Below, one piece after another: positions 40,240-58,301 of a stretch of 64,000 nt of DNA. The notes under the pieces were generated by a model. That model was not told where the DNA came from. It made no database searches and saw nothing but the letters and a program-made list of their open reading frames with translations. A program made the translations under genes and the position numbers. Each line of letters starts with the position of its first letter. Within the stretch, counting starts at the first letter, position 1. Source of the DNA: Candidatus Bathyarchaeota archaeon (lineage in GTDB: Archaea; Thermoproteota; Bathyarchaeia; Bathyarchaeales; Bathycorpusculaceae); the NCBI GenBank assembly GCA_963772455.1, contig CAVYXJ010000010.1, positions 128,001 through 192,000 on the forward strand, given 5' to 3'.

Positions 40240-42588
40240 TTGACAAGTAAAAACGTCCATGTAAAAATTGACGAAATGAAGACCAATAGCGGTCTCATTA
40301 AAAATTTTGAATTATCTATTGGCAAGGTTATGAATGACAACTATAACGAGCCAATGGGTCCAACCCCAATGCCCTCCATGACAACTCTCCGGGATTGGGA
40401 CATGAAACTTCTCACCAAGTACAAGCCCTTCTATATGCCCGATTGTGATCTTTGCTGCCTTTGCACTTTTGGCAAATGCGATTTGACAGCTGGAAAACGC
40501 GGCGCATGCGGCTTAGACATTGCAACCCAATCCTCCCGTATTGTGATGTTGGCTTGTGCAATTGGATCAGCATGTCACTCAGCTCACTCACGTCACCTTG
40601 TCCATCACTTAATTGAAAAATACGGTCGCAGATACCCCTTAGACATCGGCGGATTAAACATCAAAGTTGAAGCACCAATCACCCGTCTTGTCACCGGTAT
40701 AAAACCTGAAACACTAGGCGACCTTGAAGATGTTTTATCTTATGTTGAAGAACAAATTACTCAAGTTCTCGCAGTAGGCCACACTGGTCAAGAAGGCTGC
40801 AACTTAGACTTTGAATCCAAAGCAATGCACGTTGGTATGATTGACCACGTAGGAATGGAAGTCGGCGACATCGCACAGATTTCAACTTTAGGTTATCCAA
40901 AAGCAGATCCAGAAGCACCACTCGTAAAGCTCGGCATCGGAAGCGTCGACCGAACAAAACCAGTTATTATGGCAATTGGTCACAACGTCGTTCCATCAGT
41001 CGGAATAATCGATTACGCAAAAGACAACAAAGTTGACGACAAAATCGAAGTAGTCGGCTTATGCTGCACATCACACGACATGACAAGGTATTACAACCGC
41101 GCAAGAATTGTCGGTCCAATCAGCTGGGAACTTAGGTTCGTACGCGCAGGATTAGCAGACGTAGTTGTACTCGACGAACAATGCATCAGAACAGACATTT
41201 TCGACGAAGCCAGCAAAGTCAGCGCTCCAGTAATTGCAGCATCAGAAAAGAATTGCATGGGCTTCAAGAACCGCACAAACGATCCAGCAGACGAAATAGT
41301 CGCTGACCTCGTAAGCGGCAAAGTCAAAGGTGTCCTAATTCTCGACCCAGAAAAAGTCGGCGAAGTCGCAGTCCGCGTAGCACAACAAGTCGCTCCAGTC
41401 CGCAAGAGAAAGAACGTTCTTCCAAGCTTAGAGGAACTTACACAAATCGCAAAGAATTGCACACAATGCAGTAAGTGTCAACGTAACTGCCCACAAGACT
41501 ACGCCATTCCAGTAGCTATGAAAGCAGCAGGACAAGGAGACTTAACATTACTAACAGACCTCTATGAGACCTGTATCGGATGCGGAAGATGCGAAGAAGC
41601 ATGCCCACAAAAAATCATGATCCACAGTCTAATCATTAAAGCAGGCGAAAAAGCCATGCTTTGCGAAGACAACCTATGCCGCGTAGGAAGAGGCGCAGTC
41701 TCAGACGTCGAAATCCGCAACGTTGGTAGCCCAATCGTCCTCGGAGAAATCCCAGGTATCGTTGCAATCGTTGGCTGCAGCAACTATCCAAAAGGCGGCA
41801 AAGATGTCTATGACATAGCAAGAGAATTTGCAAGCAGACGATACATCGTCGTTGTGTCTGGATGCTCAGCTATGTCCGCAGGCAGCTACCGCAACAGCGA
41901 AGGCAAAACCCTCTACGAAGAATTCCCAGGCGGATTCGAAGCTGGAGGAGTTCTAAACGTCGGCTCATGCGTCGCAAACAGCCACATCGCCGGTGCAGCA
42001 ATCAAAGTAGCAAACATCTTCGCAAAACGCTCCCTAAGAGGTAATTATGAAGAAATCGCAGATTACATCCACAATCGCTTAGGTGCAGTTGGTTTAGCTT
42101 GGGGTGCATACTCACAGAAAGCCGCAGCAATCGGCGCAGGATTCTGGCGCTTAGGTGTACCAGTACTTGTCGGTCCACACGGGGTCAAATACAGACGTAT
42201 GCTTCTTGGCAGAAAAGAAGATCCAAAGAACTGGGAAGTCCTCGATGCACGCACAGGTAACACAGTTAACGTAGGACCAGCACCAGAACACCTCTTCAAC
42301 ATAGCTGAAACTAAGGAAGAGTGTATGGTTGCAATCGCAAAACTATGCATCAGACCAAACGATACATGGAAAGGACGCAGCATAAAACTAAGCCACTATG
42401 TTGACTTAAGCAAACGCTACCTTGGAGTAATGCCCAATGACCTACACCTGTTCGTGAGAACAATGGCTGATGTCCCGTCAACAATGAAGGACGAGTTTGT
42501 CAAGATACTTGAAGAAAACAACTGGCAAGAAACAGTAATTCCGGATCCAACCTTGCTTCCAAGAATGGTCCGTAAAATGAAGGAGTAA
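40240..42588 (+). CDS. cdhA: CODH/ACS complex alpha subunit
   Basis: CDLCCLCTFGKC, GACG, CH..H..H, IGHN, GLCCT, two 4Fe-4S ferredoxin motifs, GCSN, GSCV, SQKA. Confidence 0.97.
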   Translation: MTSKNVHVKIDEMKTNSGLIKNFELSIGKVMNDNYNEPMGPTPMPSMTTLRDWDMKLLTKYKPFYMPDCDLCCLCTFGKCDLTAGKRGACGLDIATQSSRIVMLACAIGSACHSAHSRHLVHHLIEKYGRRYPLDIGGLNIKVEAPITRLVTGIKPETLGDLEDVLSYVEEQITQVLAVGHTGQEGCNLDFESKAMHVGMIDHVGMEVGDIAQISTLGYPKADPEAPLVKLGIGSVDRTKPVIMAIGHNVVPSVGIIDYAKDNKVDDKIEVVGLCCTSHDMTRYYNRARIVGPISWELRFVRAGLADVVVLDEQCIRTDIFDEASKVSAPVIAASEKNCMGFKNRTNDPADEIVADLVSGKVKGVLILDPEKVGEVAVRVAQQVAPVRKRKNVLPSLEELTQIAKNCTQCSKCQRNCPQDYAIPVAMKAAGQGDLTLLTDLYETCIGCGRCEEACPQKIMIHSLIIKAGEKAMLCEDNLCRVGRGAVSDVEIRNVGSPIVLGEIPGIVAIVGCSNYPKGGKDVYDIAREFASRRYIVVVSGCSAMSAGSYRNSEGKTLYEEFPGGFEAGGVLNVGSCVANSHIAGAAIKVANIFAKRSLRGNYEEIADYIHNRLGAVGLAWGAYSQKAAAIGAGFWRLGVPVLVGPHGVKYRRMLLGRKEDPKNWEVLDARTGNTVNVGPAPEHLFNIAETKEECMVAIAKLCIRPNDTWKGRSIKLSHYVDLSKRYLGVMPNDLHLFVRTMADVPSTMKDEFVKILEENNWQETVIPDPTLLPRMVRKMKE

Positions 42589-42603
42589 ACGGAGGAAAAA
42601 ACT

Positions 42604-43146
42604 ATGTCCTGTGAACCATGGCAATGTGCAGAAATAGCAGCAACTAAAAAAGCAAACCCCATAACTAAACCCGAGATAGCAGTAGCGATGATCAAAAAAG
42701 CTCAACGCCCACTTCTTATTGTGGGAAGCAATGCTACTGAAAGATACATGGAAGGCAAACAATTGATCGAATACTTAATCGAGTTCGCTAATGCCTCCAA
42801 AGTGCCAGTTGTCGCAACCGCCCACATGGTTGGTGAATTTATAAAACGCGGATACCAACCTGCGGCATTTATGAATGCAATGGAAATTGGCCAAAGAGTG
42901 GTAGACCCAGAATGGATGGGAATCGACGGCAAAGGACACCCAGACCTAGTTTTGTTAGTCGGGTTACCTTATTACGTTGAATCATTGATGCTCTCCGGAA
43001 TGAAACATTTTGCACCAGATCTAAAAACCATGACCCTCGACAACCTATTCCATGTACACGCAAGCTGGTCTTTCCCAAACACAACCCTCGAAGAGTGGGC
43101 TGCAAACCTCAAAGTAATGACATCAAAATTTAATGGAGGAAATTAA
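42604..43146 (+). CDS. cdhB: CODH/ACS complex epsilon subunit
   Basis: MIKKAQRPLLIVG, W.G.DGKG..DLV...G..YY, LKHFAP-like motif, A.WSFPN. Confidence 0.94.
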   Translation: MSCEPWQCAEIAATKKANPITKPEIAVAMIKKAQRPLLIVGSNATERYMEGKQLIEYLIEFANASKVPVVATAHMVGEFIKRGYQPAAFMNAMEIGQRVVDPEWMGIDGKGHPDLVLLVGLPYYVESLMLSGMKHFAPDLKTMTLDNLFHVHASWSFPNTTLEEWAANLKVMTSKFNGGN

Positions 43147-43149
43147 AAA

Positions 43150-44571
43150 ATGTCTATGTTTAAAGATATACCCGTTGAAGTTGGCGTAATATTCGAAGGA
43201 GAACGTATTCGAAGAAATGATATGCAAGTAGAACTTGGCGGTCCAACCGTTAAGCAAAAGTTTGAACTTGCAAAAGTAAAACCCCTTGACCAGATCGAAG
43301 ATGGAAAAATAACCATTATCGGTCCAGACCTAAAAGACTTGAAAGCAGGCGGCGCATACCCATTCGGAATTCTTGTTGAAGCTGCAGGCGCAAAACTCGA
43401 CGCAGGTCTTGAAGGTGTTATTGAAAGACGCATTCATGGATACCTAAACTATATTGAAGGCTTCATGCACCTAAACCAGCGCTACGACATCTGGATTCGC
43501 ATAGGCAAGAAATCCTTCCAAAAAGGCTTGACCAGCTTTGATGCAATCGGCAAAGTCCTCTATCGCTTATTCAAGAGTGAACTGCCAATTATTGAGAAAG
43601 TTCAAATTACTTTCATAACAGACACAGCAAAACTAGATGAAATGACTCCTGAAGCCATTCAAGCATACGAATCACGCGACGCAAAAGCCAGAGGTCTAAA
43701 AGACTCAGAAGTAGACACATTCTACGGTTGTGCACTCTGTCAGTCATTCGCACCAAGCCACGTTTGTATTATCACACCTCAAAGATACAGCAACTGTGGT
43801 GCAATCAGCTGGTTTGATGGCAAAGCTTCAGCAAGCATCGATCCTAAAGGACCAGTCTTCGCAATCCCAAGAGGCGAAATGATCAACGAAGAAAAAGGCG
43901 AATTCTCAGGCGTCAACGAAGCTGCCAAGAAACGCACCATGGGCGAAGTTAACCAAGTTTGGCTATACACTGCGTTCGATCACCCACACACATCATGTGG
44001 ATGCTTCGAAGCTGTAACCTTCTACATTCCAGAAGTCGACGGATTCGGCGTCGTCAACCGCGCTTTCAAAGGAGCAGCCGTAAACGGCTTACCCTTCAGC
44101 ACAATAGCTGACTCAGCTGCAGGCGGAAGACAAATCGACGGATTCCACGGAATGTCCATCGAATACATGCGAAGCAAAAAATTCTTTGCAGCAGACGGTG
44201 GATGGAACCGAGTTGTCTGGGTACCAAAAGAAGTCAAAGAAAAAATTAAAGAATTCATCCCAGCAGACATCGTTGACAAAGTCGCAACAGAAGAAGATGC
44301 AAAGAACATTGACGAACTCAAAGCTTTCCTAAAGGCAAAGAACCACCCAGTCGTTGCAAAATGGGAATCAGAAGCAGCACCAGCAACAGAAACAACAGCT
44401 ATCCAAGTTAACGAAGAAGCAGCAGGCACAATGATGCCAGTTGCAACTATGAGCTCAATGCCAATCATGGCCGGCGGATTCAAAATCATACTCAAAGACG
44501 CAAAAATCTACGCTAACAAAGTCATCATAACAACAGTCAAAGACAGCAAAGACAACAAAGACAAACGGTGA
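43150..44571 (+). CDS. cdhC: CODH/ACS complex beta subunit (acetyl-CoA synthase)
   Basis: EGERIR, ERRIH, FYGCALCQSFAP.HVC, CGAI, PHTSCGCFE A-cluster motif. Confidence 0.97.
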   Translation: MSMFKDIPVEVGVIFEGERIRRNDMQVELGGPTVKQKFELAKVKPLDQIEDGKITIIGPDLKDLKAGGAYPFGILVEAAGAKLDAGLEGVIERRIHGYLNYIEGFMHLNQRYDIWIRIGKKSFQKGLTSFDAIGKVLYRLFKSELPIIEKVQITFITDTAKLDEMTPEAIQAYESRDAKARGLKDSEVDTFYGCALCQSFAPSHVCIITPQRYSNCGAISWFDGKASASIDPKGPVFAIPRGEMINEEKGEFSGVNEAAKKRTMGEVNQVWLYTAFDHPHTSCGCFEAVTFYIPEVDGFGVVNRAFKGAAVNGLPFSTIADSAAGGRQIDGFHGMSIEYMRSKKFFAADGGWNRVVWVPKEVKEKIKEFIPADIVDKVATEEDAKNIDELKAFLKAKNHPVVAKWESEAAPATETTAIQVNEEAAGTMMPVATMSSMPIMAGGFKIILKDAKIYANKVIITTVKDSKDNKDKR

Positions 44572-45800
44572 TTCAAACGCCCCAAAACGACAACGACAAA
44601 AAGAAAGACGCTGAAGGACTACAGCTAAGCGACGACCTATTGGAAGCACTTGCAAAATTCCAGACAATCGAGCTGGAAGACTTCCAAATGGACGTCAAAG
44701 ACCTAGAAATCATCTTCGAAGCAGGCGCAGCAGGACAAATAATGCCCAAACTAAAACTTCCAAGCATCGCAGGCGGAAAACCAACCAGCATGCTACAAAT
44801 TCCCTTCTTACCACCAATTGAAACATACCCAAACAAAATCTCTGAAGTAAAACTTGGGGCAACAAGAAGCGAAGGCGGCACCCGCGGACGATCACTAACA
44901 ATCGGCGGAGAAGTATCTCCCGCTTTTTACACTTTTGAGCGACCTATGCCACACAAACCAGTCATCACCTTAGACGTTTTCGACATGGAAGTTCCTCTGA
45001 GCAAAGCAGTCAAGATGCACGTTAAAGACGTGGTCGGTGACCCAGCAGCTTGGGCAAAACTTGCAGTCGAAAAATTCGGTGCAGACATGGTTACAATGCA
45101 CTTAATCAGTGTTGACCCACTACTCAAAGACGCATCCCCCAAAGACGCATGCAGAACCATCGAGAAAGTCCTGCAAGCTGTAGATGTACCACTAGTCATC
45201 GGCGGATGTGGAGACCCAGTTAAAGATACAGCTGTCTTTGAGGAAGTATGTGCACAATTTCCAGGCGAACGCTTCTTAATCAGCTCAGTCACACGCGACA
45301 TGGACGTAGAGAAATGTGCCAAATTCATCAAGAAAGCAGGCCACGCAATCCTCTCATTCACACCCATGGACCTTAACTTGGCACGTGAACTCAACAGACG
45401 CCTCTACGACTATGTTGGCAGAGAAGACATCATTATGGACTTAACAACTGCAGCTCTCGGCTACGGCTTAGACTATGCATTCACAAACATGGAACGCGCA
45501 CGCATGGGCGGTTTAATGGGCGACGCTGAATTGGCACACCCAATGTCCTCAGGTACAACTAACGCTTGGGCAGCAAGAGAAGCATGGCTAAAAATGTCAG
45601 CTGAATGGGAACCACGCGAACTCAGAGGTCCACTTTGGGAAGTAACAACTGCAATAACCCTGTTGCTTGCAGGCGTAGACTTATTCATGATGATGCATCC
45701 AGCAGCCGTAAAAACACTAAAAGACGTAACCAACTACTTAACAAGCGCTAAAAAAGCAGACCCATCAAAATATGCAAATTGGGTCACGGTAAAAGCTTAA
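44568..45800 (+). CDS. cdhD: CODH/ACS delta subunit (corrinoid Fe-S protein small subunit)
   Basis: EVKLGAT...GG.R, VFD, DP..WAK, IGGCG.P.KD, TTAALGYGLDY, NAWAAREAW, GPLWE, MMHP. Confidence 0.96.
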   Translation: MIQTPQNDNDKKKDAEGLQLSDDLLEALAKFQTIELEDFQMDVKDLEIIFEAGAAGQIMPKLKLPSIAGGKPTSMLQIPFLPPIETYPNKISEVKLGATRSEGGTRGRSLTIGGEVSPAFYTFERPMPHKPVITLDVFDMEVPLSKAVKMHVKDVVGDPAAWAKLAVEKFGADMVTMHLISVDPLLKDASPKDACRTIEKVLQAVDVPLVIGGCGDPVKDTAVFEEVCAQFPGERFLISSVTRDMDVEKCAKFIKKAGHAILSFTPMDLNLARELNRRLYDYVGREDIIMDLTTAALGYGLDYAFTNMERARMGGLMGDAELAHPMSSGTTNAWAAREAWLKMSAEWEPRELRGPLWEVTTAITLLLAGVDLFMMMHPAAVKTLKDVTNYLTSAKKADPSKYANWVTVKA

Positions 45801-45806
45801 GGAGAC

Positions 45807-47240
45807 ATGAATGATATGGCAGAGAAGAAAAAAGGCGGATTAAAAGAACTTAGCCCCATAACGATTTACAAAAGCTTGCCAAAAATTAACTGCAAAGAAT
45901 GCGGCGTCGACAATTGCATGGCATTCGCAACAAAAATTGTCAACCGCGAAATTGAACTCGATAGCTGCAAACCACTACTAAAACCAGAAAACGCCAAATC
46001 TTACGCTATTCTCAAAGAGCTTCTAAAACCAGCAGTCAAAGAAGTCATAATCGGCGTTGGCGACAAAGCCAAGAAAATCGGCGGCAAACTAGTCATGTAC
46101 CGTCATGAATTCACATACAAAAATCCCACAGCCATAGCAATCGATGTAACAGACGAAATGTCTGATGCCGAAATTGTTTCACGCGTTCAGAAAACAGATA
46201 ACTTTACTTTCGAATATATCGGCAACACCCTAAAACTTGACATGATAGCAGTCAGATGCACTTCTGGAGATGCAGACAAATTCAAAGCAACAGTCAAAAA
46301 AGTCTCCGAAACCACAAAACTACCAATGATCTTGTGCACCTTGAGCCCATCAATAGCTGAAGCAGGCTTAATGGCAGCGCCAAAAGCAAGACCCCTCCTA
46401 TACGCGGCAAACTCAACCAACTGGAAAGACATGGCTGAATTAGCCTTAATGTACAGCTGTCCCATAGTTGCATCTGCTCCAAATGACCTAAACACACTCG
46501 TCTCACTCGCAAAGACCCTGATGGCTTACGGCGTAACCGACATAGTTCTTGACCCAGGCACCTTCATAAATGAAGGCTTACCAGACACAATCAACAACTT
46601 TACAATGCTCAGAAGAGCAGCAACTAAAGGCGGCGAAGAACTTGCAGGCTTACCTCTACTCGGCGTACCAATGGTCGCTTGGGTAGACAAAGGCGAAATG
46701 GCAGACGACCTAGTCAAATGGCGAGAAGCATACGTTGCATCAATGCTCATAGTTCGATATGCAGATGTATTAATTATGCACGAAAACGACGGATGGGCTC
46801 TACTACCAATGACAGTACTACGCCAGAACATTTACACTGACCCACGTAAACCCGTAGCAGTTGCACCAGGACTCAAAGTTTACGGCACACCAGACGAGAA
46901 CTCACCAGTGCTCTTCACATCAAACTTCGCATTAACATACTACACCGTAGCATCAGACATCGAAAGCAATAAACTCAATGCCTACCTCATCGTCGTCGAA
47001 ACAGAAGGCTCAGCAATCGACAGTGGAGTTGCGGGGCGCAAACTAACAGCCGAACGAGTTGCAGACGCAATCAAAGCAAGCGGTATCGAACAAAAAGTCA
47101 AACACCGCAAAATAATCATTCCAGGCAAAGCATCACGCATTAGCGGCGAAATCGAAGAACTCAGCGGCTGGAAAGTCCAAGTTGGACCACGCGACAGCAG
47201 TGAGATACCCAAGTATCTCATAGAGAAATGGCAACCATAA
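45807..47240 (+). CDS. cdhE: CODH/ACS gamma subunit (corrinoid Fe-S protein large subunit)
   Basis: LPKINCKECG..NCMAFA, YRHE, LRQNIYTDPRKP, NFALTY, VGPRDS. Confidence 0.97.
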   Translation: MNDMAEKKKGGLKELSPITIYKSLPKINCKECGVDNCMAFATKIVNREIELDSCKPLLKPENAKSYAILKELLKPAVKEVIIGVGDKAKKIGGKLVMYRHEFTYKNPTAIAIDVTDEMSDAEIVSRVQKTDNFTFEYIGNTLKLDMIAVRCTSGDADKFKATVKKVSETTKLPMILCTLSPSIAEAGLMAAPKARPLLYAANSTNWKDMAELALMYSCPIVASAPNDLNTLVSLAKTLMAYGVTDIVLDPGTFINEGLPDTINNFTMLRRAATKGGEELAGLPLLGVPMVAWVDKGEMADDLVKWREAYVASMLIVRYADVLIMHENDGWALLPMTVLRQNIYTDPRKPVAVAPGLKVYGTPDENSPVLFTSNFALTYYTVASDIESNKLNAYLIVVETEGSAIDSGVAGRKLTAERVADAIKASGIEQKVKHRKIIIPGKASRISGEIEELSGWKVQVGPRDSSEIPKYLIEKWQP

Positions 47241-47886: not shown

Positions 47887-49368
47887 ATAGGCTGCGGTAT
47901 CTTTGGCGCAATAAATTATGAAAAACAACCAGTTTTTCCGTATGTTTATTGGGGATTACGTGCCCAAAATCATCGAGGTCACCAGTCACACGGTTTCCTC
48001 ACAAGCAACAATAACGAGTTTTTCACGTACAAAGCCTTAGATTTGGTTCCAAGACTAAAAACAAGTGTCATTCACGAATGGTTCGGTCGCCTACCCGGAT
48101 CCATCGGCATCGGCAATGTACGGTATACAACCTCAGGCAAATGCGACGACGTCTCCATAATAGACGGGACCCAACCAGTTGTCGCCTCCGTAGACGGAAT
48201 AAAACTCGCCCTCTCCTTTAACGGTAACATCGTTAATACTTTGCCGCTCAAAAAAGAAATATGTGAAAACTTCGATGATTTCCTCTACAACTGCGACTCT
48301 GACATCGTTTGCCACAAAATGCTCCTTGCCTTAAAACAAGGTCAAGACTTATCCTCAGCCGCCCGAACAGTCATGGAAAGCTTAGACGGCGCATTCTCAG
48401 TAATTGGTATAACAGGCGATGGTCAATTCTTCGCCTTCAAAGACCCGCACGGCATAAAACCCCTGTGCGCTGGGCATGACCCCGAAACCAAGACATTTGC
48501 GTTTTCCTCCGAAACTGTGAGCTTGGACATGAACAGTTTTGTTAGAGATTTTGAGTTGGAGCCGGGTGAACTTGTTACGGTTTCAGAAAACGGTTTTAAA
48601 CGCACCCAACTTATTGAGAATCCGCGTGAAGCCTTCTGTTGTTTTGAATACGCTTATTTTGCAAGACCCGACTCGCGCTTTGACGGAAAATACGTTTATG
48701 AAATCCGAGAAGATTACGGGAGAAATCTTGTTAAAGAGTTCCCTGAAATCGTCAAGGACGGCGACATCATTATGTCTGTGCCTGAAACTGGCGATGACTC
48801 AGCCATGGGAGTTCATGAAGCTTCAGGTTTACGATGGGAACGCGCATCAAGGCGTCACCGTTATGTTACCGAACGAGCCTTTATTTTGCTTAACAATGAA
48901 CGTTACTCAACTATCGACAAAAAAATTAACATCTTAGGTAGCAAAGTTGCGGGCAAACGAGTTATAGTAACAGAAGACAGCGTTGTCCGAGGCGACACCA
49001 CCAAGGTTATCATAGAAAAACTCCGCAAGGCAGGCGCCAAGAAAGTTTACCTCTTCGTAACTTTTCCACGTATCATCGGACCTTGCTTCTATGGTATTGA
49101 CATGTCAACTTACGGGCAACTCGTCGGTTCCCGACATAATGCTGAGGAAATCGCTAAAATCATAGGTGCAGACGCCGTTTGCTATCAGTCCATTGAAGGA
49201 TTAGTACGTGCTAGTGGCCAAACTGAAGATCAGCTTTGTATGGCGTGCATTACAGGTAAGTATCCGACGCCGTGTGCGCAAAAGATGTCGGACATAATGA
49301 AGAAACGTTTCCAAGATGGATACGAAGAAAAAACAAGAATCTACGAATCCGAAGAAGCTCAGCCGTAA
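47887..49368 (+). CDS. purF: Amidophosphoribosyltransferase (4Fe-4S type)
   Basis: Frame extends 52 codons above the track start to ATA-GGC-TGC (I/M-G-CGIFG, catalytic Cys); HRG, RYTT.G, NGN, FEYAYFARPDS, EDSVVRGDT, PCFYGID, CMAC. Confidence 0.95.
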   Translation: MGCGIFGAINYEKQPVFPYVYWGLRAQNHRGHQSHGFLTSNNNEFFTYKALDLVPRLKTSVIHEWFGRLPGSIGIGNVRYTTSGKCDDVSIIDGTQPVVASVDGIKLALSFNGNIVNTLPLKKEICENFDDFLYNCDSDIVCHKMLLALKQGQDLSSAARTVMESLDGAFSVIGITGDGQFFAFKDPHGIKPLCAGHDPETKTFAFSSETVSLDMNSFVRDFELEPGELVTVSENGFKRTQLIENPREAFCCFEYAYFARPDSRFDGKYVYEIREDYGRNLVKEFPEIVKDGDIIMSVPETGDDSAMGVHEASGLRWERASRRHRYVTERAFILLNNERYSTIDKKINILGSKVAGKRVIVTEDSVVRGDTTKVIIEKLRKAGAKKVYLFVTFPRIIGPCFYGIDMSTYGQLVGSRHNAEEIAKIIGADAVCYQSIEGLVRASGQTEDQLCMACITGKYPTPCAQKMSDIMKKRFQDGYEEKTRIYESEEAQP

Positions 49369-49416
49369 TCGCTATTAAGCGTTCCCTCCAATGTCTTAGC
49401 AGATAGGTGTCTTTGG

Positions 49417-50829
49417 ATGGAAAAAATCGGTGTCCTAGTTGTTTCTTATGGCGCACGAGAAGTTGCCATGGCGGATGCTCTTCTAAGAAGCAAAAAATAC
49501 CAAGTGGAACTCTACGTCGCCGACAAACAATGCAACCCCTACAATGCTAAAAACGCAACAAAACAAGTAGTTATTCCAACCCTAGACATAAACGAAATCT
49601 GCAAGTTTGCAGAGACAAACAAAGACAAACTCGACTTTGTTATGGTTGGCTCCGAGAAACCTATAATCGAAGGAATCAGAGACCTAATCGAGAAACAAAC
49701 AGGTATACCCGTAATCTGTCCAACCAAAGAGTACGCAATTGAGGAGAGCAAGATTGCTCAGCGAATTCTTTTCGAGGAGATAGCGCCCGAAGCGAACCCA
49801 CGGTTTAAAATTTTTCATCCTTCAGATTACAAAGGCAAAGATATTCAAAAATCAGTTTATCAATGGCTGGACGAATTGGACAATCAAGCTGTGGTCAAGC
49901 CCGATAAGCCTGCATTGGGTAAAGGTGTGGGCGTTTGGGGAGACCACTTCGCAAATCGGGAGCAGCTTTTTGAGCATTTCATGTCCAACTTCAAATATGG
50001 TTCAGTTCTAATAGAAGAAAAAATTGACGGAGAAGAATCCAGTTGCATGGGCTTCTGCGACGGCAAACACTTCATTTCCCTGCCTGACACACGCGACTAC
50101 AAACGTGCCTTTGACGACGACAAGGGACCCAACACAGGTGGTATGGGTTCCTATAAAGACGTAGTCGATTACCTGCCCTTCCTCACTGCCTCTGAACGCG
50201 AACAAGAACTTGCGTTAGCTGATAGGGTTTTTAGAGGATGGAAAACAAAAATCAAAGACGACACGGCGCTAAGAGGTGTCCCACTGTACCTTGCCTTCAT
50301 GCACACAGGCAAGGGTATCAAAATCCTTGAAATCAACAGCCGCCCAGGTGACCCCGAAATCATGAACCTTCTTGCAATCATAAAAGAAGACTTCGTCGAT
50401 GTCTGCCTCAAAATGGTCAATGGAAACCTAAATGGTGTTGCAATGGAAAAGTTGGCGACAGTATTGACTTACAAGGTTCCATCAGATTATGGTGGATACG
50501 CTGATGCGTTTCCTGACAAAGTGGATAAACAAGCAGTCAACATGCCTGTTGACCTCGATAAGGCTGAGGCACTTGTCGAAAAATTCGGCGAGAAAATCCG
50601 CGTATATCCTGGCTCTATGGAGCTGCGCGATGGCAAAAACTATGCTCTCAAATCCCGAGCCATAGGTATCCTTGGCATCGGTGGAAGCATCGAGGAAGCA
50701 CGTCAAATCAGTCAGGAAGGAGCTAAAGCAATAACTGGTGGTGCGCTCTGGAACCGAACAGATGTTGCCTCAAAGCAACATATTTCTAAAAGCATTAGGC
50801 ACATGGAGCAGTTGAGGCAAAAGCCTTGA
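49417..50829 (+). CDS. purD: Phosphoribosylamine-glycine ligase
   Basis: GARE.A, IEESK, GKGV, EEKIDGEE.S, DYKRAFD.D.GPNTGGMGS, E.NSRPGDPE. Confidence 0.95.
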   Translation: MEKIGVLVVSYGAREVAMADALLRSKKYQVELYVADKQCNPYNAKNATKQVVIPTLDINEICKFAETNKDKLDFVMVGSEKPIIEGIRDLIEKQTGIPVICPTKEYAIEESKIAQRILFEEIAPEANPRFKIFHPSDYKGKDIQKSVYQWLDELDNQAVVKPDKPALGKGVGVWGDHFANREQLFEHFMSNFKYGSVLIEEKIDGEESSCMGFCDGKHFISLPDTRDYKRAFDDDKGPNTGGMGSYKDVVDYLPFLTASEREQELALADRVFRGWKTKIKDDTALRGVPLYLAFMHTGKGIKILEINSRPGDPEIMNLLAIIKEDFVDVCLKMVNGNLNGVAMEKLATVLTYKVPSDYGGYADAFPDKVDKQAVNMPVDLDKAEALVEKFGEKIRVYPGSMELRDGKNYALKSRAIGILGIGGSIEEARQISQEGAKAITGGALWNRTDVASKQHISKSIRHMEQLRQKP

Positions 50830-51908
50830 CCTGTATCTTTGTTTCCGACTGCGAAGGACCAATATCCAAAAATGATAATGCCTTCGAGTTAGCTGAGAAC
50901 TTTATTCCAAACGGTGACAAATTTTTCACACTCATAAGCCTCTATGATGATGTCTTGGCAGATGCAATCAAGAAACCTGGTTACACTGCGGGCAGCACTC
51001 TCAAGTTGATTTTGCCCTTCTTCAAAGCGTATGGGATAACGGACAGCCAAATGGAAGATTTCTCAACTAATAATATTCTGCTAATCGCCAACAGTAAAGC
51101 AACACTGAACTACATACAAAGAATTGCTGGCTCCTTTATCGTTAGCACAAGCTATGAACACTATATCAAAGCCTTCTGCAAAGCGGTCGATTTTCCACTC
51201 AAAAATGCGTATTGTACAAAAGTGAAACTCGACAAATGTCCCATCACACCCCAAGAAAAGGAGCGCTTAAGAGAGATGGCGCAAGAAATCGCGCAAATGC
51301 CCCCAATCGCCATTCCACCAAACGCTAAAACCATTGAGGATTTTTCAAACCGCGATCAGGCAATTATCAAGCGGTTAGATGAGATTTTTTGGAGTCTAAT
51401 TCCCAAGATGTTTGTTGGCAAGTTTCTCACAGATGTAGTTACCATTGGCGGGGAACATAAAGCCGAAGCCATTCGTGACATAGTCAAACGTTTAGGTAGT
51501 GAGCTGGAGAATGTGTTGTATGTGGGAGATAGCATAACAGATGTGGACGCATTCAAACTAGTACGCTCCAATGGTGGCTTGGTGGTCTCTTTCAACGGGA
51601 ACAGTTATGCAGTAAGGGAAGCTGACGTGGCAGTTCTGTCGGATAGTAACCTTGTTACAGCTGTGATAGCTGATTTGTTCTGTAAGTTGGGCAAAAAACA
51701 AACCCTTAAAGCTCTTGGTTTATGGAGCTATGATGTTCTTAAAAAAAATCAGATAGACGAAGTTTTACTAAAACAGTTATCAACGTTGTATCCTGATGTA
51801 TTGCCCAAAGTTCAAATAGTTACAGCCAAAAATATGGAATCACTAATAAAAGAGAGCAGCGAGTTTAGGAAGAAGGTTCGCGGAGTAGCCGTGGGGAGAC
51901 TTGGATAA
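50826..51908 (+). CDS. HAD-superfamily hydrolase (EhaR-like)
   Basis: FVSDCEGPISKNDNAFEL (motif I variant), VSTSY (II), GGEHK (III), YVGDSITD (IV), SFNGN.YA; TTGA overlap with purD. Confidence 0.8.
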   Translation: MTCIFVSDCEGPISKNDNAFELAENFIPNGDKFFTLISLYDDVLADAIKKPGYTAGSTLKLILPFFKAYGITDSQMEDFSTNNILLIANSKATLNYIQRIAGSFIVSTSYEHYIKAFCKAVDFPLKNAYCTKVKLDKCPITPQEKERLREMAQEIAQMPPIAIPPNAKTIEDFSNRDQAIIKRLDEIFWSLIPKMFVGKFLTDVVTIGGEHKAEAIRDIVKRLGSELENVLYVGDSITDVDAFKLVRSNGGLVVSFNGNSYAVREADVAVLSDSNLVTAVIADLFCKLGKKQTLKALGLWSYDVLKKNQIDEVLLKQLSTLYPDVLPKVQIVTAKNMESLIKESSEFRKKVRGVAVGRLG

Positions 51909-52817
51909 ATGCCTAAAGCAAAAATCGAAGACACTTATGCAGAAGCGTTCACTGGGATTTATTGTCGTGTAATCGTAACTGCGGACGACGAGCCAACGCT
52001 TCGCAAAGCCGCCGAAGACTCCACTGCAACGCCATCAGTAGTGATTGGAAGAACCGAGGGCGGTGTTGAAAAATACCTAACTCCAAGTGAAACACCAGAC
52101 AAACGCATGGGCGCTATATTGCAGTTCTGGGGAGAAATCAACCCAAAAAAAACCTTCGAGGAATCACTGAAAAAGTTTGAAACTGAACTGTCTTATCGTA
52201 TTCGCCAGGATATTCTTGTTAAACCCTTTACGGCAATTTTCGATGCAATGCCAAGGGCTGAGGGCAAGTTAGATATGATGGAGAGTGTGGGGCATTGCGG
52301 CGACGGTTACGAGTGGGTTGAGAAGCGTTATGGCAGGGAAGTCATTGTTGTTCCTTTAATGGTTCCGGACTTTATCATCGAACACTATCTTGGTTACGCG
52401 AAAGGTGTTATGGGCGGCAATTTTTGGATAATGTGCAAATCAAAAGAAGCACTCAAAGAAGCGGGCGCTAGAGCACTAAAGGCAATTCATAAAGTGTACG
52501 GGGTCGTGAACACTTTTGACATATGTTCAGCTGGCTCCAAACCAGAAACGCACTTTCCCAAAATAGGACCCACTACCAACCACCTATATTGTCCATCGCT
52601 CAAATCGCGCTTAGGTAAAGAATCCAAGGTTCCAGAAGGCGTCGGTTACATAGCCGAAGTCGTCTTCGACGGCATTTCTTTGGATGCAGTTAAAGAAGCC
52701 ACCAAAACAGGAATCAAAGCGGTTTTAGAAGTTGATGGTGTTGTGCGGGTTTCCGCCGGCAATTACGGTGGCAAACTAGGCGAATATAAAATCCAATTAA
52801 AGGAGTTATTTCCATGA
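51909..52817 (+). CDS. Formylmethanofuran:tetrahydromethanopterin formyltransferase-like protein (divergent Ftr paralogue)
   Basis: [50 protein letters not shown]. Confidence 0.9.
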
Positions 52818-53728
52818 CAAAATTTGATGTAGTCGGTTTCGGGGCACTCAACGTTGACATGCTCTTCAAAGTCGAGCGACTTGCAACTGCGGAAGAAGAA
52901 AGCTTTATTGAAAATTACACAGAAGCTTGCGGTGGATCAGCCGCAAACACAATTGTTGGATTGGCTAGGCTTGGTTGTAAAGTCGGTTTCATAGGCAAAG
53001 TTGCTAACGACCGTGAAGGCCAAATGCAACTTGATTGCTTCCAAACAGAAGGAGTGGACACAGGCGGCATAATTGAGACAACCAAGGGAAGAAGCGGTTC
53101 GGTTATGGGTTTTGTGGACAGAAAAGGTGCAAGGGCTCTCTACATTAATTCAGGCGTCAATGACTTAGTTGAGCTTAGAGAAATTAAATATGAATACATT
53201 TCTCAAACTAAACTCCTTCATTTATCGTCCTTCGTTGGTGAAAAATCGTTCCGTGCACAAAAGAAGCTCTTAAGCGCTTTGCCTGAAGGGGTTGAAATAA
53301 GTTTTGACCCAGGTTCATTGTACGCTCAAAAAGGTTTTGCAGTCATTGAGCCTATCCTTAAGAATTCTCATGTTATGATGCCAAATGCAATTGAACTTGA
53401 ACAATTAACCGGTGAAGAAGATTACCGCAAAGGAGCTGATTTCATGATTGCTATGGGTGTTAAGATCGTGGCTGTTAAGCTTGGCAACAAAGGTTGCTAT
53501 GTAACGGACGGTAATGAAAAGCTTAGTGTAGAACCATTCAAAGTTAAAGCAATCGACACAACTGGGGCAGGCGACGCTTTCAACGCAGGCTTCCTCTATG
53601 GCTTAATCCAAAACAAAAGTCTCTATGAATGCGGTCAATTGGGCAATTTTGTAGCTTCCCGAAGCGTTATGGCAATGGGTGCCCGCGCAGGCTTACCCTA
53701 TGCTAAAGATTTAGCACTTCTTAGTTAG
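52814..53728 (+). CDS. PfkB/ribokinase-family kinase (nucleoside-kinase-like)
   Basis: GGSAAN, LG.....[25 protein letters not shown]; ATGA overlap with the Ftr-like gene. Confidence 0.92.
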
Positions 53729-54529
53729 CTTGTCGATTATGCTTTGGAAGATTAGTTTTCCATCGCCATACTGGAGCATTTGTTGTTCGCGCGTCCAGTT
53801 GGGTTGTTGCCACCAATACATCGCCCTCTCAGGATGAGGCATCAACCCAAAGATGTTGCCTTCTTTGTTGCAGATTCCAGCAATGTCGTAGAATGAACCG
53901 TTAGGACAGATCGGGTACTTGCCGTCAGCGACTTTGCCATTTTTGTCGCAGTAGCGGAACACCAACATGTCCTCATCGATGAGTTTCTTTAGCAGTGCCT
54001 GCTCTTGTTCTTTTGGAAATAGTAATCGCCCTTCTCCGTGTGCGATTGGTAAGCTAATGACTTTTCCTGGTGGAATTTTGTTTGTAAATAAACATTTACC
54101 TTTGTTTTCTTGTTTGAGGTAGATCCATTCGCATTTGAAACCTGCAGGTTCATTGGTGGTCAATGTGGCTTCTGGGTAGGCGCTCAGTCCTTTGAAGCCT
54201 GGAAGCAAACCGTATTCGACTAGGATTTGGAAACCGTTACAGATGCCCAAGATTGGTCTGCCTTCATCGATGAATTTTCCCATTTCTTTGGCGAGGTTCG
54301 CGGAGAGGTGTCTTGCAAAAATCACGCCTGAACGAACATAGTCGCCGAATGAAAAGCCGCCAGGAAAAACTAGAATACTGTAATCCAGCAGGTTTCGGTG
54401 TTTGATTAACTCGTTAACATGGACAGATTCTGCTTGTACGCCTAGTTCTTGGAAGGCACGCAGGGTTTCTGCGTCGCAGTTGGTGCCGCCGACTCGCATT
54501 ACGCAGACTTTGATTTCTTCGGTGTTCAT
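53711..54529 (-). CDS. purQ: FGAM synthase glutaminase subunit
   Basis: GTNCD.E, PGGFSFGD, GICNGFQ, AHGEG, PNGS, GLMPHPER. Confidence 0.97.
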   Translation of the reverse strand: MNTEEIKVCVMRVGGTNCDAETLRAFQELGVQAESVHVNELIKHRNLLDYSILVFPGGFSFGDYVRSGVIFARHLSANLAKEMGKFIDEGRPILGICNGFQILVEYGLLPGFKGLSAYPEATLTTNEPAGFKCEWIYLKQENKGKCLFTNKIPPGKVISLPIAHGEGRLLFPKEQEQALLKKLIDEDMLVFRYCDKNGKVADGKYPICPNGSFYDIAGICNKEGNIFGLMPHPERAMYWWQQPNWTREQQMLQYGDGKLIFQSIIDKLTKKC

Positions 54530-56913
54530 TGTGGTGCCTCCTCTTGGTTTAAGGTTCTTTTCCAGTTGTGTCTTAGGTTTTCAAGCTTAGCATCAATTGC
54601 GCTTTTTCCATTCAGCCCCGTAATGAGTAGTTTTGGTTCTTTGGTTACTTTGCCGATTAAAGCGCAGTTCTTGCCTTTCATTAGAGTCTCAAAATCTTCT
54701 TTGTCTGCTTCTGCAACTTCGATTAGAAAGCGACTGTTTGATTCTGAGAACAACACAAAATCGTTTCGCGCCATTTCTTTGGCTGGCACTTTGGATAGGT
54801 TTATTTCTAAGCCGTAGTCGCTTGCAAATGCCATTTCGGCTGCTGCTACTGCTAAGCCGCCTTCCGAGAGGTCGTGGCATGATTTAATTAATCCTTCGTC
54901 AATGGCGTCAATAACTGCTCTGAAGGTGCGTTTGGCTTTTGCTCCTTTTACTTTGGGTACGTTTGCGCCAAGGTAGCCTTTGAGTTTGTAGTATTCTGAG
55001 CCGCCTAGTTCGTTGTATGTTTCCCCGATGATGTAGAGTAGGTTGCCGGGGGCTTTGAGTTCCATGGAGATGGTTGATTGAATGTTTGGAATTACGCCTA
55101 CTGCAGTGATTAGAAGTGTGGGTGTTATTGGCCCGAGGGGCGATTCATTGTATAAGCTGTCTTTTCCTGAAATGAACGGTGCCTTAAATGCCACAGAGAA
55201 GTCGAAGCATGCTTGACACGCTCTCACAAGCGATCCCAATCGCTCTGGTTTCTCGGGGTTTCCCCAAGTGAAATTGTCTAGTAGTGAGACTCTTCTTCCG
55301 CCCACTGCAACGTTGTTTCGGATTGCTTCGTCAATGGCTGAAGCTGCCATCCAATAAGCATCAATCTTGCCATAATTCGGGTTCATACCGCAAGAAATCA
55401 CTAAACCCTTCCATGAATCGTCAAGTGGTTTTAAGACGGCGGCATCGTTTGGTCCTGCGTATTCGCCTTGTAGTGGTTTGAGGGTTGTGTTGCCTTTGAC
55501 TTCATGGTCGTAAGTGCGAATTACGCTTTCTTTGCTTGCTATGTTTGGGGCTGCGAGTAGTAGGTGCAAGGTTTCAGTTAGGTTTGATGGTTCTGGGAAT
55601 TCTGGTTCGGTAAAGGTTGTTTTTTCGATGGTTGCTATTTTGCTGCTTGTGCAAGGGTTGAAGAGGAAAGTCATGTTTATGTCGCTGACGGTTTCTCCGT
55701 TGTAGGTGAGTTTTAGTTGTCTCTCTGGTGTTAGTGTTCCGATGGCTGTTGCAATAACGTCTTCTTTTTCGAAAACAGCCATGACACGCTCCAGATTCTC
55801 GCAAGGCACCGTGATTAACATGCGTTCTTGTGATTCTGATAGGTAAATTTCCCATGGTGCCAAATCCGGATGCTTCAAGGGTACTTTAGCTAAATCTGCG
55901 ATTACTCCGCAGTTAAAGCGTTCTGCTGTTTCGCCAACTGCTGAAGATAAGCCTCCGCCGCCAATGTCAGTCACTGCTGAAGCGAGTTGTAGGTCGCGGA
56001 TCTCTATTATTGCTCGTTTAACTTTTTCTTCTTCTATAGGGTCTGCTATTTGGACTGCTGGGCGCGAGACTGTTTCCGATTTCTCGGTTAATTCTGCGGA
56101 TGCGAAGGTTACTCCGTGGATGCCGTCGCGTCCGGTTTTTCCGCCTGCTAAAACTACTATGTCGCCGACTTTAGCGTTTTTTGCATATTTGTTTAGAGGT
56201 AAAAGTCCAATGCAGCCGCAGTATACTGTGACGTTGCCTGTGTAGGATTCGTCGAAGTATATTGCGCCGTTTACGGTTGGGATGCCCATGTTGTTGCCGT
56301 AGGCGCTGATGCCTGCGGTGACACCCATATAAACGTATTTTGGATGTTTAACGCCTGCAGGAAGCTTCTTGTAATCGTAATCTAAAGGTCCAAAACCTAA
56401 GACGTCAGTGCAAGCGATTGGGTCAGCCCATACGCCTAGTATGTCGCGTATAACGCCACCAACTCCTGTTGCTGCGCCGCCAAATGGCTCAATCGCAGAT
56501 GGATGGTTGTGAGTTTCAACTTTTGCTGCTATGCCAAAACCCTTGTCAAACTTGACGATTCCCGCATTGTCTTCAAATACACTTACACACCAAGGTGCTT
56601 TGATTTGTTTGGTGGCTTTTGCAATGTATGTTTTGAAGAGACTGTCGATTTCTTTACCATCGATTTGGATTTTTCCTTTGAAGGTTTTGTGGCAACAGTG
56701 CTCTGACCATGTTTGGCTAATGGTTTGTAGTTCTAAATCAGTCGGATTTCTTTTTTCTTCTTTAAAATAAGCTTGGATGTTGCATAGTTCTTGTTGGCTA
56801 AAACCCAAGGATAATTCGCTGTTGAATTCGGCAAGTTGTTCTTGGGTAGCTTTTGCTATAGCAACTTCTAAAACTGGGCTGGTTTTGCGTTGGGTGTAGA
56901 GGTTAGCGTTCAT
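54526..56913 (-). CDS. purL: FGAM synthase synthetase subunit
   Basis: WSEHC.HK, VETHNHPS, GAATG.GG.IRD, D.GGGG, SESQERM, YDHEV, SGKDSLYNE, HDLSEGG. Confidence 0.97.
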   Translation of the reverse strand: MNANLYTQRKTSPVLEVAIAKATQEQLAEFNSELSLGFSQQELCNIQAYFKEEKRNPTDLELQTISQTWSEHCCHKTFKGKIQIDGKEIDSLFKTYIAKATKQIKAPWCVSVFEDNAGIVKFDKGFGIAAKVETHNHPSAIEPFGGAATGVGGVIRDILGVWADPIACTDVLGFGPLDYDYKKLPAGVKHPKYVYMGVTAGISAYGNNMGIPTVNGAIYFDESYTGNVTVYCGCIGLLPLNKYAKNAKVGDIVVLAGGKTGRDGIHGVTFASAELTEKSETVSRPAVQIADPIEEEKVKRAIIEIRDLQLASAVTDIGGGGLSSAVGETAERFNCGVIADLAKVPLKHPDLAPWEIYLSESQERMLITVPCENLERVMAVFEKEDVIATAIGTLTPERQLKLTYNGETVSDINMTFLFNPCTSSKIATIEKTTFTEPEFPEPSNLTETLHLLLAAPNIASKESVIRTYDHEVKGNTTLKPLQGEYAGPNDAAVLKPLDDSWKGLVISCGMNPNYGKIDAYWMAASAIDEAIRNNVAVGGRRVSLLDNFTWGNPEKPERLGSLVRACQACFDFSVAFKAPFISGKDSLYNESPLGPITPTLLITAVGVIPNIQSTISMELKAPGNLLYIIGETYNELGGSEYYKLKGYLGANVPKVKGAKAKRTFRAVIDAIDEGLIKSCHDLSEGGLAVAAAEMAFASDYGLEINLSKVPAKEMARNDFVLFSESNSRFLIEVAEADKEDFETLMKGKNCALIGKVTKEPKLLITGLNGKSAIDAKLENLRHNWKRTLNQEEAPQ

Positions 56914-57161
56914 TTAATTTCAACAACGCTTATAGTGTAGTTGTCTTTGGTTGGGTTTGCCAAAAGACGTTTGCTCATATCTTCTGCCTTCGCTTTGGCT
57001 TCAGTTAGCGTTGATGCATCAAGAGTCACGGTGTAGACTTTGCTTACGTCGACCGCTTGAACCTTGTAGCCGAGTTCCACAAGTAAACGTGCAGTTGTTT
57101 CGCCTTCCGGGTTGCTATGTCCGGGTTTGAGGCTGACTTCAATTTTGGCAGCGTATTTCAT
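56910..57161 (-). CDS. purS: FGAM synthase PurS subunit
   Basis: V.LKPG..NPEG.T, LG, K, LLANP..D.Y. Confidence 0.93.
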   Translation of the reverse strand: MKYAAKIEVSLKPGHSNPEGETTARLLVELGYKVQAVDVSKVYTVTLDASTLTEAKAKAEDMSKRLLANPTKDNYTISVVEIK

Positions 57162-57218
57162 AAGCCACTAAATTATGATTTGGAATTTAAACGCTTTCGT
57201 AAAGAAAAAAGCAATACT

Positions 57219-58301
57219 TTATGTGAAAATCATATGTTTGGTCTTGTAATCTATTTCCACGACTTTTTGTTTGTTAGTTATCTTGCCGATAATCTCAGGG
57301 TTCTCGCCAGCGTGCTTTAGAGTGTTTAATGTGTTCTCAATATCTGCCTTGTTAACCACAATGGCAAATCCCCAGCCCATGTTAAAGGTCTTAAACATCT
57401 CCTCATCAGATATTATAAATCCCAGATCAGCCGCGGTTTTCTGGATTAATCCAAATATTGGATGCGGCTTGAAATTGTTGAATTCAAAACCGATGCCTGG
57501 AGAGTAGTTGGCAAGGTTATTGAATTTCAAGTAAGCATCGCCCGTAATGTGGACAGCTCCCTTAATTTTGACTTCTTGAGCAAGTTTTAAGAAAGGTTTA
57601 ACGTAGATTTTCGTGGGTTTCAAAACCTCAAGAACCACTTCCCTGTCTATCCCTTCTGGGATGTCGTAGGGTGAGTATTTTCCGCCCCATTGTTTGAAGA
57701 GGATTTTTCTTGCAAGTGTGATAGCGTTGCTGTGCAAGCCGCTGCTGGGCAAACCGATAATTGGGTCTTCCGGCTTGATGTTTTCGCCAGTGATGATTTT
57801 TTTGCGTTCAACACTGCCGACCGAAGAGACAACCATATCGAACCCTGCGTTTTCCGATAAGCCCTTGATTAATTCAGCTACGTCTCCTGTTTCGCCACCT
57901 GTAACTGGGCATTCGGATTCGTGCGCGCCTTGGATGATGCCTTTTAGCCACTCGTTTACTAATGTGGGTTCGCTGGCCTGCGCATGAATGTTATCCGCTA
58001 CGGAAAGAGGTTTGGCGCCAGAGCGAATCACATCATTAACAGCCATCGCAACAGCGTCTACACCTATTGTGTCGTATTTTTGTGCTAGTTGAGCAACAAG
58101 AACTTTGGTGCCTACACCTTCAATTACTAAATCCAAAAAAGTGTTCTCGCCGATTGGAAAAATGTTTCCGTAAGGTAGATGCATTACACCGCTAAAGAGG
58201 CTGTGCTGGTAGGTTTCCTGCAGATTCTTAAGTTGTTTTTTGGATTCTACGCGTTGTTTGCGATTTACTCCTGCATCCTCGTAAGTGTAGTTTTTGGGCA
58301 C
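57219..58301 (-). CDS. purM: AIR synthase
   Basis: TY.DAGV, EGVGTK, D.VAM.VND, GGETG, SSGLHSN, AVHITG, EM..TFNMG.G. Confidence 0.95.
   Translation of the reverse strand: MPKNYTYEDAGVNRKQRVESKKQLKNLQETYQHSLFSGVMHLPYGNIFPIGENTFLDLVIEGVGTKVLVAQLAQKYDTIGVDAVAMAVNDVIRSGAKPLSVADNIHAQASEPTLVNEWLKGIIQGAHESECPVTGGETGDVAELIKGLSENAGFDMVVSSVGSVERKKIITGENIKPEDPIIGLPSSGLHSNAITLARKILFKQWGGKYSPYDIPEGIDREVVLEVLKPTKIYVKPFLKLAQEVKIKGAVHITGDAYLKFNNLANYSPGIGFEFNNFKPHPIFGLIQKTAADLGFIISDEEMFKTFNMGWGFAIVVNKADIENTLNTLKHAGENPEIIGKITNKQKVVEIDYKTKHMIFT

Follow-up and report, generated by a model that had tools for sequence, protein, structure and literature searches.

Formylation of glycinamide ribonucleotide (GAR) to formylglycinamide ribonucleotide (FGAR), the third step of purine synthesis, has two described solutions, the folate-dependent enzyme PurN and the enzyme PurT, which uses formate and ATP. 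The stretch analysed here, 64,000 nucleotides from a Candidatus Bathyarchaeota archaeon (GenBank assembly GCA_963772455.1, contig CAVYXJ010000010.1, positions 128,001 to 192,000 of the forward strand; hereafter the window), contains a purine operon in which purD is followed by genes for a HAD-superfamily protein, for a paralogue of formylmethanofuran:tetrahydromethanopterin formyltransferase (Ftr), hereafter called Ftr2, and for a kinase of the PfkB/ribokinase family. Ftr2 is probably a GAR formyltransferase which uses formyl groups from tetrahydromethanopterin (H4MPT) or methanofuran; we infer its substrate, donor and activity from sequence and genomic context. This reading is carried by a recurrent gene order, a split between Ftr2 and the other Ftr clade, a distribution complementary to that of PurN and PurT, and the replacement of one by the other directly after purD.

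A gap in archaeal purine synthesis, the missing GAR formyltransferase, has been on record at least since 2011. According to passages of PMC3261824, two Archaeoglobi, four Methanobacteriales species (given there under the order name Methanomicrobiales) and Methanopyrus kandleri have neither purN nor purT, their pathways being otherwise intact. Methanothermobacter thermautotrophicus is described there as a purine prototroph despite having neither gene, and Methanosphaera stadtmanae as deriving purine C8 from C2 of acetate, an origin which we read as compatible with a carrier-bound formyl group. The gap was repeated in 2022 for ANME-1, one of the groups of anaerobic methanotrophic archaea (ANME), in PMC9012536, which also describes Archaeoglobales and Methanobacteriales as lacking PurN and PurT and calls for an unidentified enzyme. 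Ftr2 is listed in the same paper as uncharacterised and as occurring in ANME-1, ANME-2a, ANME-2b, Archaeoglobales, M. kandleri and Methanothermobacter; in the relevant passages the occurrence of Ftr2 and the lack of PurN and PurT stand separately, unconnected. Possible further relatives close the operon of the Eha hydrogenase, where EhaS has been annotated as Ftr-like and EhaT as ribokinase-like; they are cotranscribed with eha, lie next to each other in Methanothermobacter and have no role assigned to them (passages of PMC3087415). Literature searches, which did not extend to supplementary gene tables, turned up no publication that connects a paralogue of Ftr with the formylation of GAR. Lineages without PurN and PurT and lineages with Ftr2 are already named in the surveys cited.

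The purine genes of the window are arranged in two groups, purQ-purL-purS-purM on the minus strand converging on purF-purD-HAD-Ftr2-PfkB on the plus strand:

47887..49368 (ORF also read from 48043), + strand, purF, amidophosphoribosyltransferase, step 1 (TIGR01134, 299 bits)
49417..50829, + strand, purD, GAR synthetase, step 2 (GARS_A 114 bits, GARS_N 58 bits)
50826..51908, + strand, HAD-superfamily protein of 360 aa, family of AF1437 (PDB 1y8a), with weak Hydrolase_3/Hydrolase matches above the cut-offs
51909..52817, + strand, Ftr2, Ftr paralogue of 302 aa, proposed for step 3 (FTR and FTR_C domains)
52814..53728, + strand, PfkB/ribokinase-family kinase of 304 aa (PfkB 175.5 bits)
53711..54529, - strand, purQ, glutaminase of formylglycinamidine ribonucleotide (FGAM) synthase, step 4 (NF002252, 316 bits, above cut-off)
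54526..56913, - strand, purL, FGAM synthase II, step 4 (TIGR01736, 678 bits, above cut-off)
56910..57161, - strand, purS, step 4 (TIGR00302, 68 bits, above cut-off)
57219..58301, - strand, purM, aminoimidazole ribonucleotide (AIR) synthetase, step 5 (TIGR00878, 253 bits, above cut-off)

The purD and HAD genes overlap in TTGA, the TAA of the HAD gene is directly followed by the ATG of Ftr2 with a zero-base gap, and Ftr2 and PfkB overlap in ATGA. ORF listing and family scans confirmed this gene map, its coordinates and the three coupled junctions, all of which had been given in a first-pass annotation of the window; its remark that hydrogenase genes are absent also held, none being found among the 32 window ORFs scanned for families. 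The window purD scored 233 bits with TIGR00877, not reaching the cut-off of 288, and its GARS_C match is weak.

The source genome (2.45 Mb, 24 contigs, 92.4 % complete) was searched in full for PurN and PurT, neither of which had been recognised in the cluster, and the absence was found to extend to the whole assembly. The PurN fold (PF00551, Formyl_trans_N) gave 0 matches genome-wide and none in the window proteins scanned. The best genome match to PurT scored 44 bits against the TIGR01142 cut-off of 502 and came from long carbamoyl-phosphate-synthase-like open frames. The pathway is otherwise present, with purE, purC and two adjacent purP genes on contig C7; PurH was not found in the source genome and the second formylation would proceed via the formate-dependent PurP. 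The locus appears to be the main purine operon of a methanopterin-using Bathyarchaeia archaeon which lacks both known GAR formyltransferases. Neither PurN nor PurT was found in any of 21 relatives, representing 9 families of one order. G010, the single relative without Ftr2, was set aside as uninformative, since purD is missing from it as well.

The Ftr2 of the window matched the Pfam domains FTR (149.6 bits, cut-off 27) and FTR_C (180 bits, cut-off 25) and the subfamily model NF002554 (334.7 bits, cut-off 297), and scored 236.2 bits with the equivalog model TIGR03119, the cut-off of which is 292.6. The source genome has two Ftr genes, and Ftr2 shares 36 % identity with the other, Ftr1. Two draws of 201 genomes each were made, one from Bathyarchaeia and one from the phylum of Ca. 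Methanoliparum (hereafter the second phylum). In Bathyarchaeia, matches to the window Ftr2 formed two groups, one from 51 % identity and 272 bits upwards and the other reaching no more than 45 % and 211 bits. The same split was seen in the second phylum (at least 404 vs at most 290 bits), where the search profile (A1) was built from 15 Ftr2 sequences. The solved Ftr structures (1ftr, 2fhj, 2fhk, 1m5h, 1m5s) scored 165-179 bits against the window Ftr2, within the Ftr1-type range (at most 211 bits). A tree of 71 rows divides them into 21 of Ftr1 and 50 of Ftr2; the branch between the two measures 0.42+0.42 and has an SH-aLRT of 100, the window Ftr2 lying outside the canonical Ftr1-type clade. 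The Ftr1 part of the tree follows the phyla; in the Ftr2 part, sequences from Bathyarchaeia, Asgard archaea, Methanoliparia and other genomes are intermixed, implying horizontal transfer. Ftr2 belongs to an ancient clade of paralogues within the Ftr family. A Glu of active-site type is invariant in the 21 Ftr1 and 50 Ftr2 rows (E250 in the window protein, E246 in Ftr1 rows of 297 residues), and we take it to correspond to the catalytic Glu245 of M. kandleri Ftr. Thirteen positions, including R99, E93, W74, W173, C130 and C176, are invariant in Ftr2 only. An Ftr1 copy accompanies Ftr2 in every genome of Bathyarchaeia and the second phylum that was checked.

A homologue search for longer forms of Ftr2 returned 1 protein among 4124 candidates, of 559 aa, 35 % identical and of Ftr1 type. 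In G215 (L045:9555-11351) Ftr2 and PfkB lie in one frame of 599 aa with the junction CTGATGACT, the sole apparent Ftr2-PfkB fusion; it may be genuine or result from a one-base indel error, and is given little weight. A predicted complex of Ftr2 and PfkB scored 0.00 against a mark of 0.32, which is evidence neither way. At two loci of Ca. Methanolliviera and Ca. Methanoliparum (L077 and L078), in genomes with PurN, an Ftr2-type gene adjoins a MoaA-like radical SAM gene, and the Methanoliparum genome G223 has a second Ftr match of 281.5 bits.

With thresholds taken from the two-group split in scores, the distribution of Ftr2, PurN and PurT in the two draws was as follows:

Bathyarchaeia: 75 genomes with Ftr2, 74 of them without PurN and PurT; 126 genomes without Ftr2, 88 of them with PurN or PurT and 38 lacking all three enzymes
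Phylum of Ca. Methanoliparum: 83 genomes with Ftr2, 77 of them without both PurN and PurT; 118 genomes without Ftr2, 105 of them with PurN or PurT and 13 with none

The anti-correlation which the first-pass annotation had proposed to look for was thus borne out, genomes with the Ftr paralogue also encoding PurN or PurT in only 1/75 cases in Bathyarchaeia and 6/83 in the second phylum. PurT was found in 0/83 of the Ftr2 genomes of the second phylum. The Bathyarchaeia exception (G166) is a 79-bit match to PF00551, over model positions 3-158, in an open frame of 300 aa. Alternation was also seen within a single Bathyarchaeia family (f16), in which 14 genomes comprise 2 with Ftr2, 8 with PurT, 1 with PurN and 3 with none. 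A 175-bit "PurT" match in G021 was dropped from the PurT count, since it adjoins purE directly and is as long as PurK, and second-phylum matches to the PurT model of 140-175 bits were read as PurK-like.

The order purD-HAD-Ftr2-PfkB was present in 14/14 loci fetched from relatives in 9 families, and this recurrence argues that the arrangement is not due to chance. HAD-Ftr2-PfkB also followed purD in 18/20 loci fetched from more distant Bathyarchaeia. In a sample of 80 public loci closest to the first alignment row, 64 were titled Bathyarchaeia or Bathyarchaeota and none Methanobacteriota, and 59/64 of the Bathyarchaeia-titled loci contained at least one pur gene. HAD was directly upstream of Ftr2 in 47/57 of the Bathyarchaeia-titled loci with room to see it and PfkB directly downstream in 56/59; in five of the exceptions on the HAD side an extra gene, 1 to 1.8 kb long, lies between HAD and Ftr2. 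Linkage to pur genes is therefore not peculiar to the source genome, the more so since it was also seen in three Asgard records (two Atabeyarchaeia chromosomes and the isolate LC30), in which the order is purQ-purL-purF-purD-Ftr2 with Ftr2 alone after purD. PurN, PurT and a HAD of the AF1437 family were all searched for in these three genomes and not found. In other Bathyarchaeia the position directly after purD is occupied by a PurT-like gene (G026, G036, G092) or by PurN (G072, G207, G082, G057, G117, G216). The PurT-like protein of G026 scored 244 bits with NF006766, a PurT model, and 77 bits with PurK models.

The HAD-Ftr2 inserts of L102, L107, L111 and L113 are about 1 kb long, that of L102 (8979-9953) being an ORF of 324 aa with no family above cut-off. 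At L126 (9271-9927) the insert is a PurH2-like IMP cyclohydrolase gene on the opposite strand. In the Asgard loci, Ftr2 is directly followed by an ArgE/DapE-family deacylase gene (TIGR01910, 268.7 bits vs cut-off 217.6), as at L074:10543-11829 and L075:10984-12273.

The purD linked to the three genes is a distinct subtype of 470 aa, 50-94 % identical among most such loci and only 26-33 % identical to purD beside PurN, PurT or the Asgard Ftr2, the loci compared including L033-L076. The ordinary purD subtype is found beside Ftr2 in the Asgard loci, G051 and L073. In G022 the gene next after a purD of the distinct subtype is PurN-like and divergent.

In six genomes of the second phylum (loci L153-L156, L168 and L170; genomes G361, G290, G231, G253, G385 and G346) the Ftr2 is 74-75 % identical to that of the window and nested in its Bathyarchaeia clade. 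At these loci all that flanks it of the other two genes are stretches of about 40 residues, from the C-terminus of HAD and the N-terminus of PfkB, suggesting that the cassette was horizontally transferred and that Ftr2 alone was kept intact at that place. A separate, unlinked HAD gene is present in G361, G290, G231 and G253, and a separate PfkB gene in G290, G231 and G253.

The HAD protein matched AF1437, a structural-genomics protein (PDB 1y8a), with an E value of 2.4e-29 over residues 4-296, and shares with it the motifs D-x-E-G-P, GDSI(T/S)D and FNGN-YA. All four HAD catalytic motifs were found; in motif I, D8-x-E10-G11-P12, Glu replaces the usual second Asp. D8, E10, G11, P12, K212 and G234-D239 (G234-D-S-I-T-D239) are invariant, and the block S107-T108-S109 is invariant or nearly so. 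Literature searches for AF1437 and for EhaR found nothing relevant. The kinase has the PfkB fold (175.5 bits, cut-off 25.8) and the GAGD anion-hole motif of ribokinase/PfkB kinases, T250-G-A-G-D254 being invariant in 10 sequences, and its best PDB matches are a fructokinase and ribokinases. It differs from the named members of that family in forming its own orthologue group, found in the same genomes as Ftr2 and HAD, and it scored below every named equivalog cut-off, including those for ribokinase (TIGR02152, 174.8 vs 299.65; NF008353, 129.2 vs 341).

In the second phylum HAD was found in 78/83 genomes with Ftr2 vs 18/118 without, and the PfkB orthologue, counted at a threshold of at least 229 bits in a consecutive subset of 72 genomes, in 33/34 with Ftr2 vs 6/38 without. 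HAD and PfkB are usually adjacent even where Ftr2 is elsewhere (G272, G289, G259, G237, G248, G281), and the order HAD-PfkB-Ftr2 also occurs (G299, G315, G254). The pair was likewise seen with PurN and without Ftr2 in six genomes (G243, G265, G274, G283, G307, G323), and in G278, without Ftr2, it adjoins PurT. In the Asgard genomes PfkB is located near purE, purM and purP. HAD and PfkB thus appear to be a two-gene module, usual in Ftr2 genomes and separable from Ftr2; they are linked to Ftr2 and the purine genes, yet are not strictly needed wherever Ftr2 takes the slot after purD. A gene of the semialdehyde dehydrogenase family is directly upstream of HAD in L157, L177, L180 and L181, and an adenosine-deaminase-like amidohydrolase gene is close to the HAD-PfkB pair in L157, L175 and L180.

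The first-pass annotation had named a similar set of genes, ehaR, ehaS and ehaT, behind the Eha operon of Methanobacteriales. The EhaS and EhaT part of this statement agrees with the published annotations in the passages of PMC3087415 cited above. EhaR as a HAD protein goes back solely to the automatic name of the Atlas cluster neighbouring the window HAD, and the likeness of EhaR/S/T to the window genes has these two sources. The Methanothermobacter genes sit at the end of the eha operon, whereas those of the window are in a purine operon with no hydrogenase gene among the 32 window ORFs scanned.

In the proposed scheme Ftr2 would catalyse step 3, GAR to FGAR, by transferring the formyl group of N5-formyl-H4MPT or formyl-methanofuran, drawn from the Wood-Ljungdahl one-carbon (C1) pool, onto the glycine amine of GAR. 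GAR formyltransferases would then number three, Ftr2 being unrelated to PurN and PurT. Ftr2 resembles these enzymes in its slot after purD, in its complementary distribution and in the product proposed for it. It differs from them in sequence and fold, having neither Formyl_trans_N nor an ATP-grasp domain, and in its proposed donor, an H4MPT- or methanofuran-bound formyl group in place of folate or of formate with ATP. With Ftr it has in common the two-lobe domain pair, the Glu of active-site type and the C-terminal block GNYGGKLG, and the chemistry proposed for it, formyl transfer between amide and amine, is also of the same kind. It is set apart from Ftr by its deep, separate clade, its place in purine operons, its exclusion of PurN and PurT and its proposed acceptor, which would be GAR instead of H4MPT or methanofuran. 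HAD would be a phosphatase and PfkB a kinase, with a nucleoside or a ribosyl purine intermediate as their substrate, which would make both accessory to the Ftr2 route (by pull, salvage or homeostasis) and place them outside its catalytic core. They may form either an ATP-driven riboside bypass or a nucleoside/nucleotide salvage pair.

Several observations weigh against a GAR formyltransferase. In all its hallmarks Ftr2 is like an ordinary Ftr, and it might be no more than an isoenzyme. All six second-phylum genomes that form exceptions among the 83 with Ftr2 carry PurN; four of the six are of Methanoliparia type, with Ftr2 beside a MoaA-like gene and no pur genes, and passages of PMC9012536 report Ftr2 together with PurN in ANME-2a and ANME-2b. 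A pur gene was present within 10 kb in only 2/21 Ftr2 loci fetched from the second phylum. None of the three enzymes, the only pathway members scored there, was found in 38/126 and 13/118 of the Ftr2-negative genomes, and the PF00551 counts include formyltransferases other than PurN. The 2x2 tables overstate the signal, because the genomes counted are related and so not independent of one another. The PurN and PurT clusters of Bathyarchaeia, moreover, differ from the window cluster in all genes, with about 35 % identity, so that part of the complementarity reflects turnover of whole clusters.

It seems to us improbable that Ftr2 merely duplicates formylmethanofuran:H4MPT formyltransferase as an anabolic or alternative isoenzyme. 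Its full membership of the Ftr family by domains and by NF002554, the conserved Glu and the Methanoliparia-type genomes which combine it with PurN speak for such a role, but an isoenzyme would leave unexplained both the mutual exclusion with PurN and PurT in two phyla and the slot after purD, and the Ftr2 genomes checked keep Ftr1 too. The two adjacent purP paralogues of the source genome count on the isoenzyme side as well. A PurP paralogue was considered as the missing step-3 enzyme and ranked low; a single PurP locus, MTH1201, is named for M. thermautotrophicus in passages of PMC3087415, and duplicate PurP-like genes also occur in PurT-bearing lineages according to passages of PMC3261824. 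The subtype of purD raises the alternative that Ftr2 formylates glycine or another precursor, which the divergent PurD would ligate to phosphoribosylamine, skipping free GAR. The low identity of this purD to the others and its weak GARS_C match fit such a scheme, but Ftr2 adjoins the ordinary subtype in the Asgard loci, G051 and L073, and the divergent subtype precedes a PurN-like gene in G022, which makes it highly improbable.

The other alternatives concern HAD and PfkB, which the first-pass annotation had joined with Ftr2 in one system; their usual co-occurrence supports this, the Asgard genomes without HAD and the HAD-PfkB pairs beside PurN or PurT in genomes without Ftr2 do not. Taken as one system, the three proteins could work as an ATP-driven bypass in which HAD takes the phosphate off GAR, the resulting riboside is formylated by Ftr2, and PfkB then phosphorylates the product again to give FGAR, the transfer being made irreversible by the one ATP spent per formyl group, as in PurT. 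Operon coupling, the co-occurrence counts, the recurrence of the three genes in the order HAD-PfkB-Ftr2 and the adjacency of EhaS and EhaT in Methanothermobacter (PMC3087415, in the passages cited) are in favour of it. So are the kinase matches in the PDB, which include 1tyy, 1tz3 and 1tz6, a PfkB enzyme acting on the riboside of a purine intermediate. These three entries are presumably aminoimidazole riboside kinase. The bypass is nonetheless quite improbable, as the Asgard genomes in which Ftr2 follows purD lack a HAD of the AF1437 family, HAD-PfkB pairs accompany PurN, and once PurT, in genomes without Ftr2, and only Ftr2 is intact at the six transferred loci. We give as little credence to a wider version, in which the three proteins would be one ATP-coupled GAR-formylating machine between the Wood-Ljungdahl C1 pool and purines, with the 5'-phosphate removed by HAD and put back by PfkB, ATP being spent to make an otherwise near-isoenergetic transfer irreversible, and EhaR/S/T the same set riding on the Eha operon of Methanobacteriales because Eha supplies reduced ferredoxin to replace the formyl groups drained into purines. 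Conversely, HAD and PfkB could be a purine salvage pair, 5'-nucleotidase and nucleoside kinase, with no part in formylation and merely a neighbour of Ftr2. This is possible, if on the unlikely side: the pair exists independently of Ftr2, the amidohydrolase gene lies close to it at three loci and the Asgard PfkB is near purine genes, but in the second phylum the pair is mostly found in Ftr2 genomes, and kinase and HAD alike fall below the cut-offs of all characterised nucleoside kinase and nucleotidase models.

Upstream of the operon the window has archaeal genes of CO dehydrogenase/acetyl-CoA synthase (CODH/ACS), which directly precede purF and are given as context only:

40240..47240, + strand, CODH/ACS genes (cdhA, epsilon, cdhC and two of the cdhD family; Pfam Prismane, CO_dh, CdhC and CdhD)

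The purF gene has an apparent ATA start at 47887, reading M(ATA)-G-C-G-I-F-G with the catalytic Cys at codon 3. As an in-frame TGA (47881-47883) is located two codons upstream of it, this ATA would be the only possible start. It is kept in 7/8 of the loci in which the motif was found (L015-L028), with ATG in the same place in L027. A gene for a TIR-domain protein of the CAP12/Pycsar-effector type (PF10137, 89.9 bits; 58407-59252) adjoins purM, a position in which it is conserved in L015 and L026, both from the genus of the source organism. The window also contains guaA, encoding GMP synthase, at 18852-20402, about 28 kb upstream of the pur operon.

If Ftr2 is indeed a GAR formyltransferase, a core step of purine synthesis would have a third, unrelated solution, in which formyl groups bound to methanopterin or methanofuran feed purine C8 directly. 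The C1 pool of the Wood-Ljungdahl pathway and of methanogenesis would then be tied to nucleotide synthesis without free formate or folate, and the presence of Ftr-like and kinase-like genes behind those of eha would have a reason. Annotations of a "second Ftr", which number in the hundreds across Bathyarchaeia, Asgard archaea, Archaeoglobi, ANME and methanogens, would have to be corrected, and this would affect metabolic models of these archaea and the interpretation of isotope labelling.

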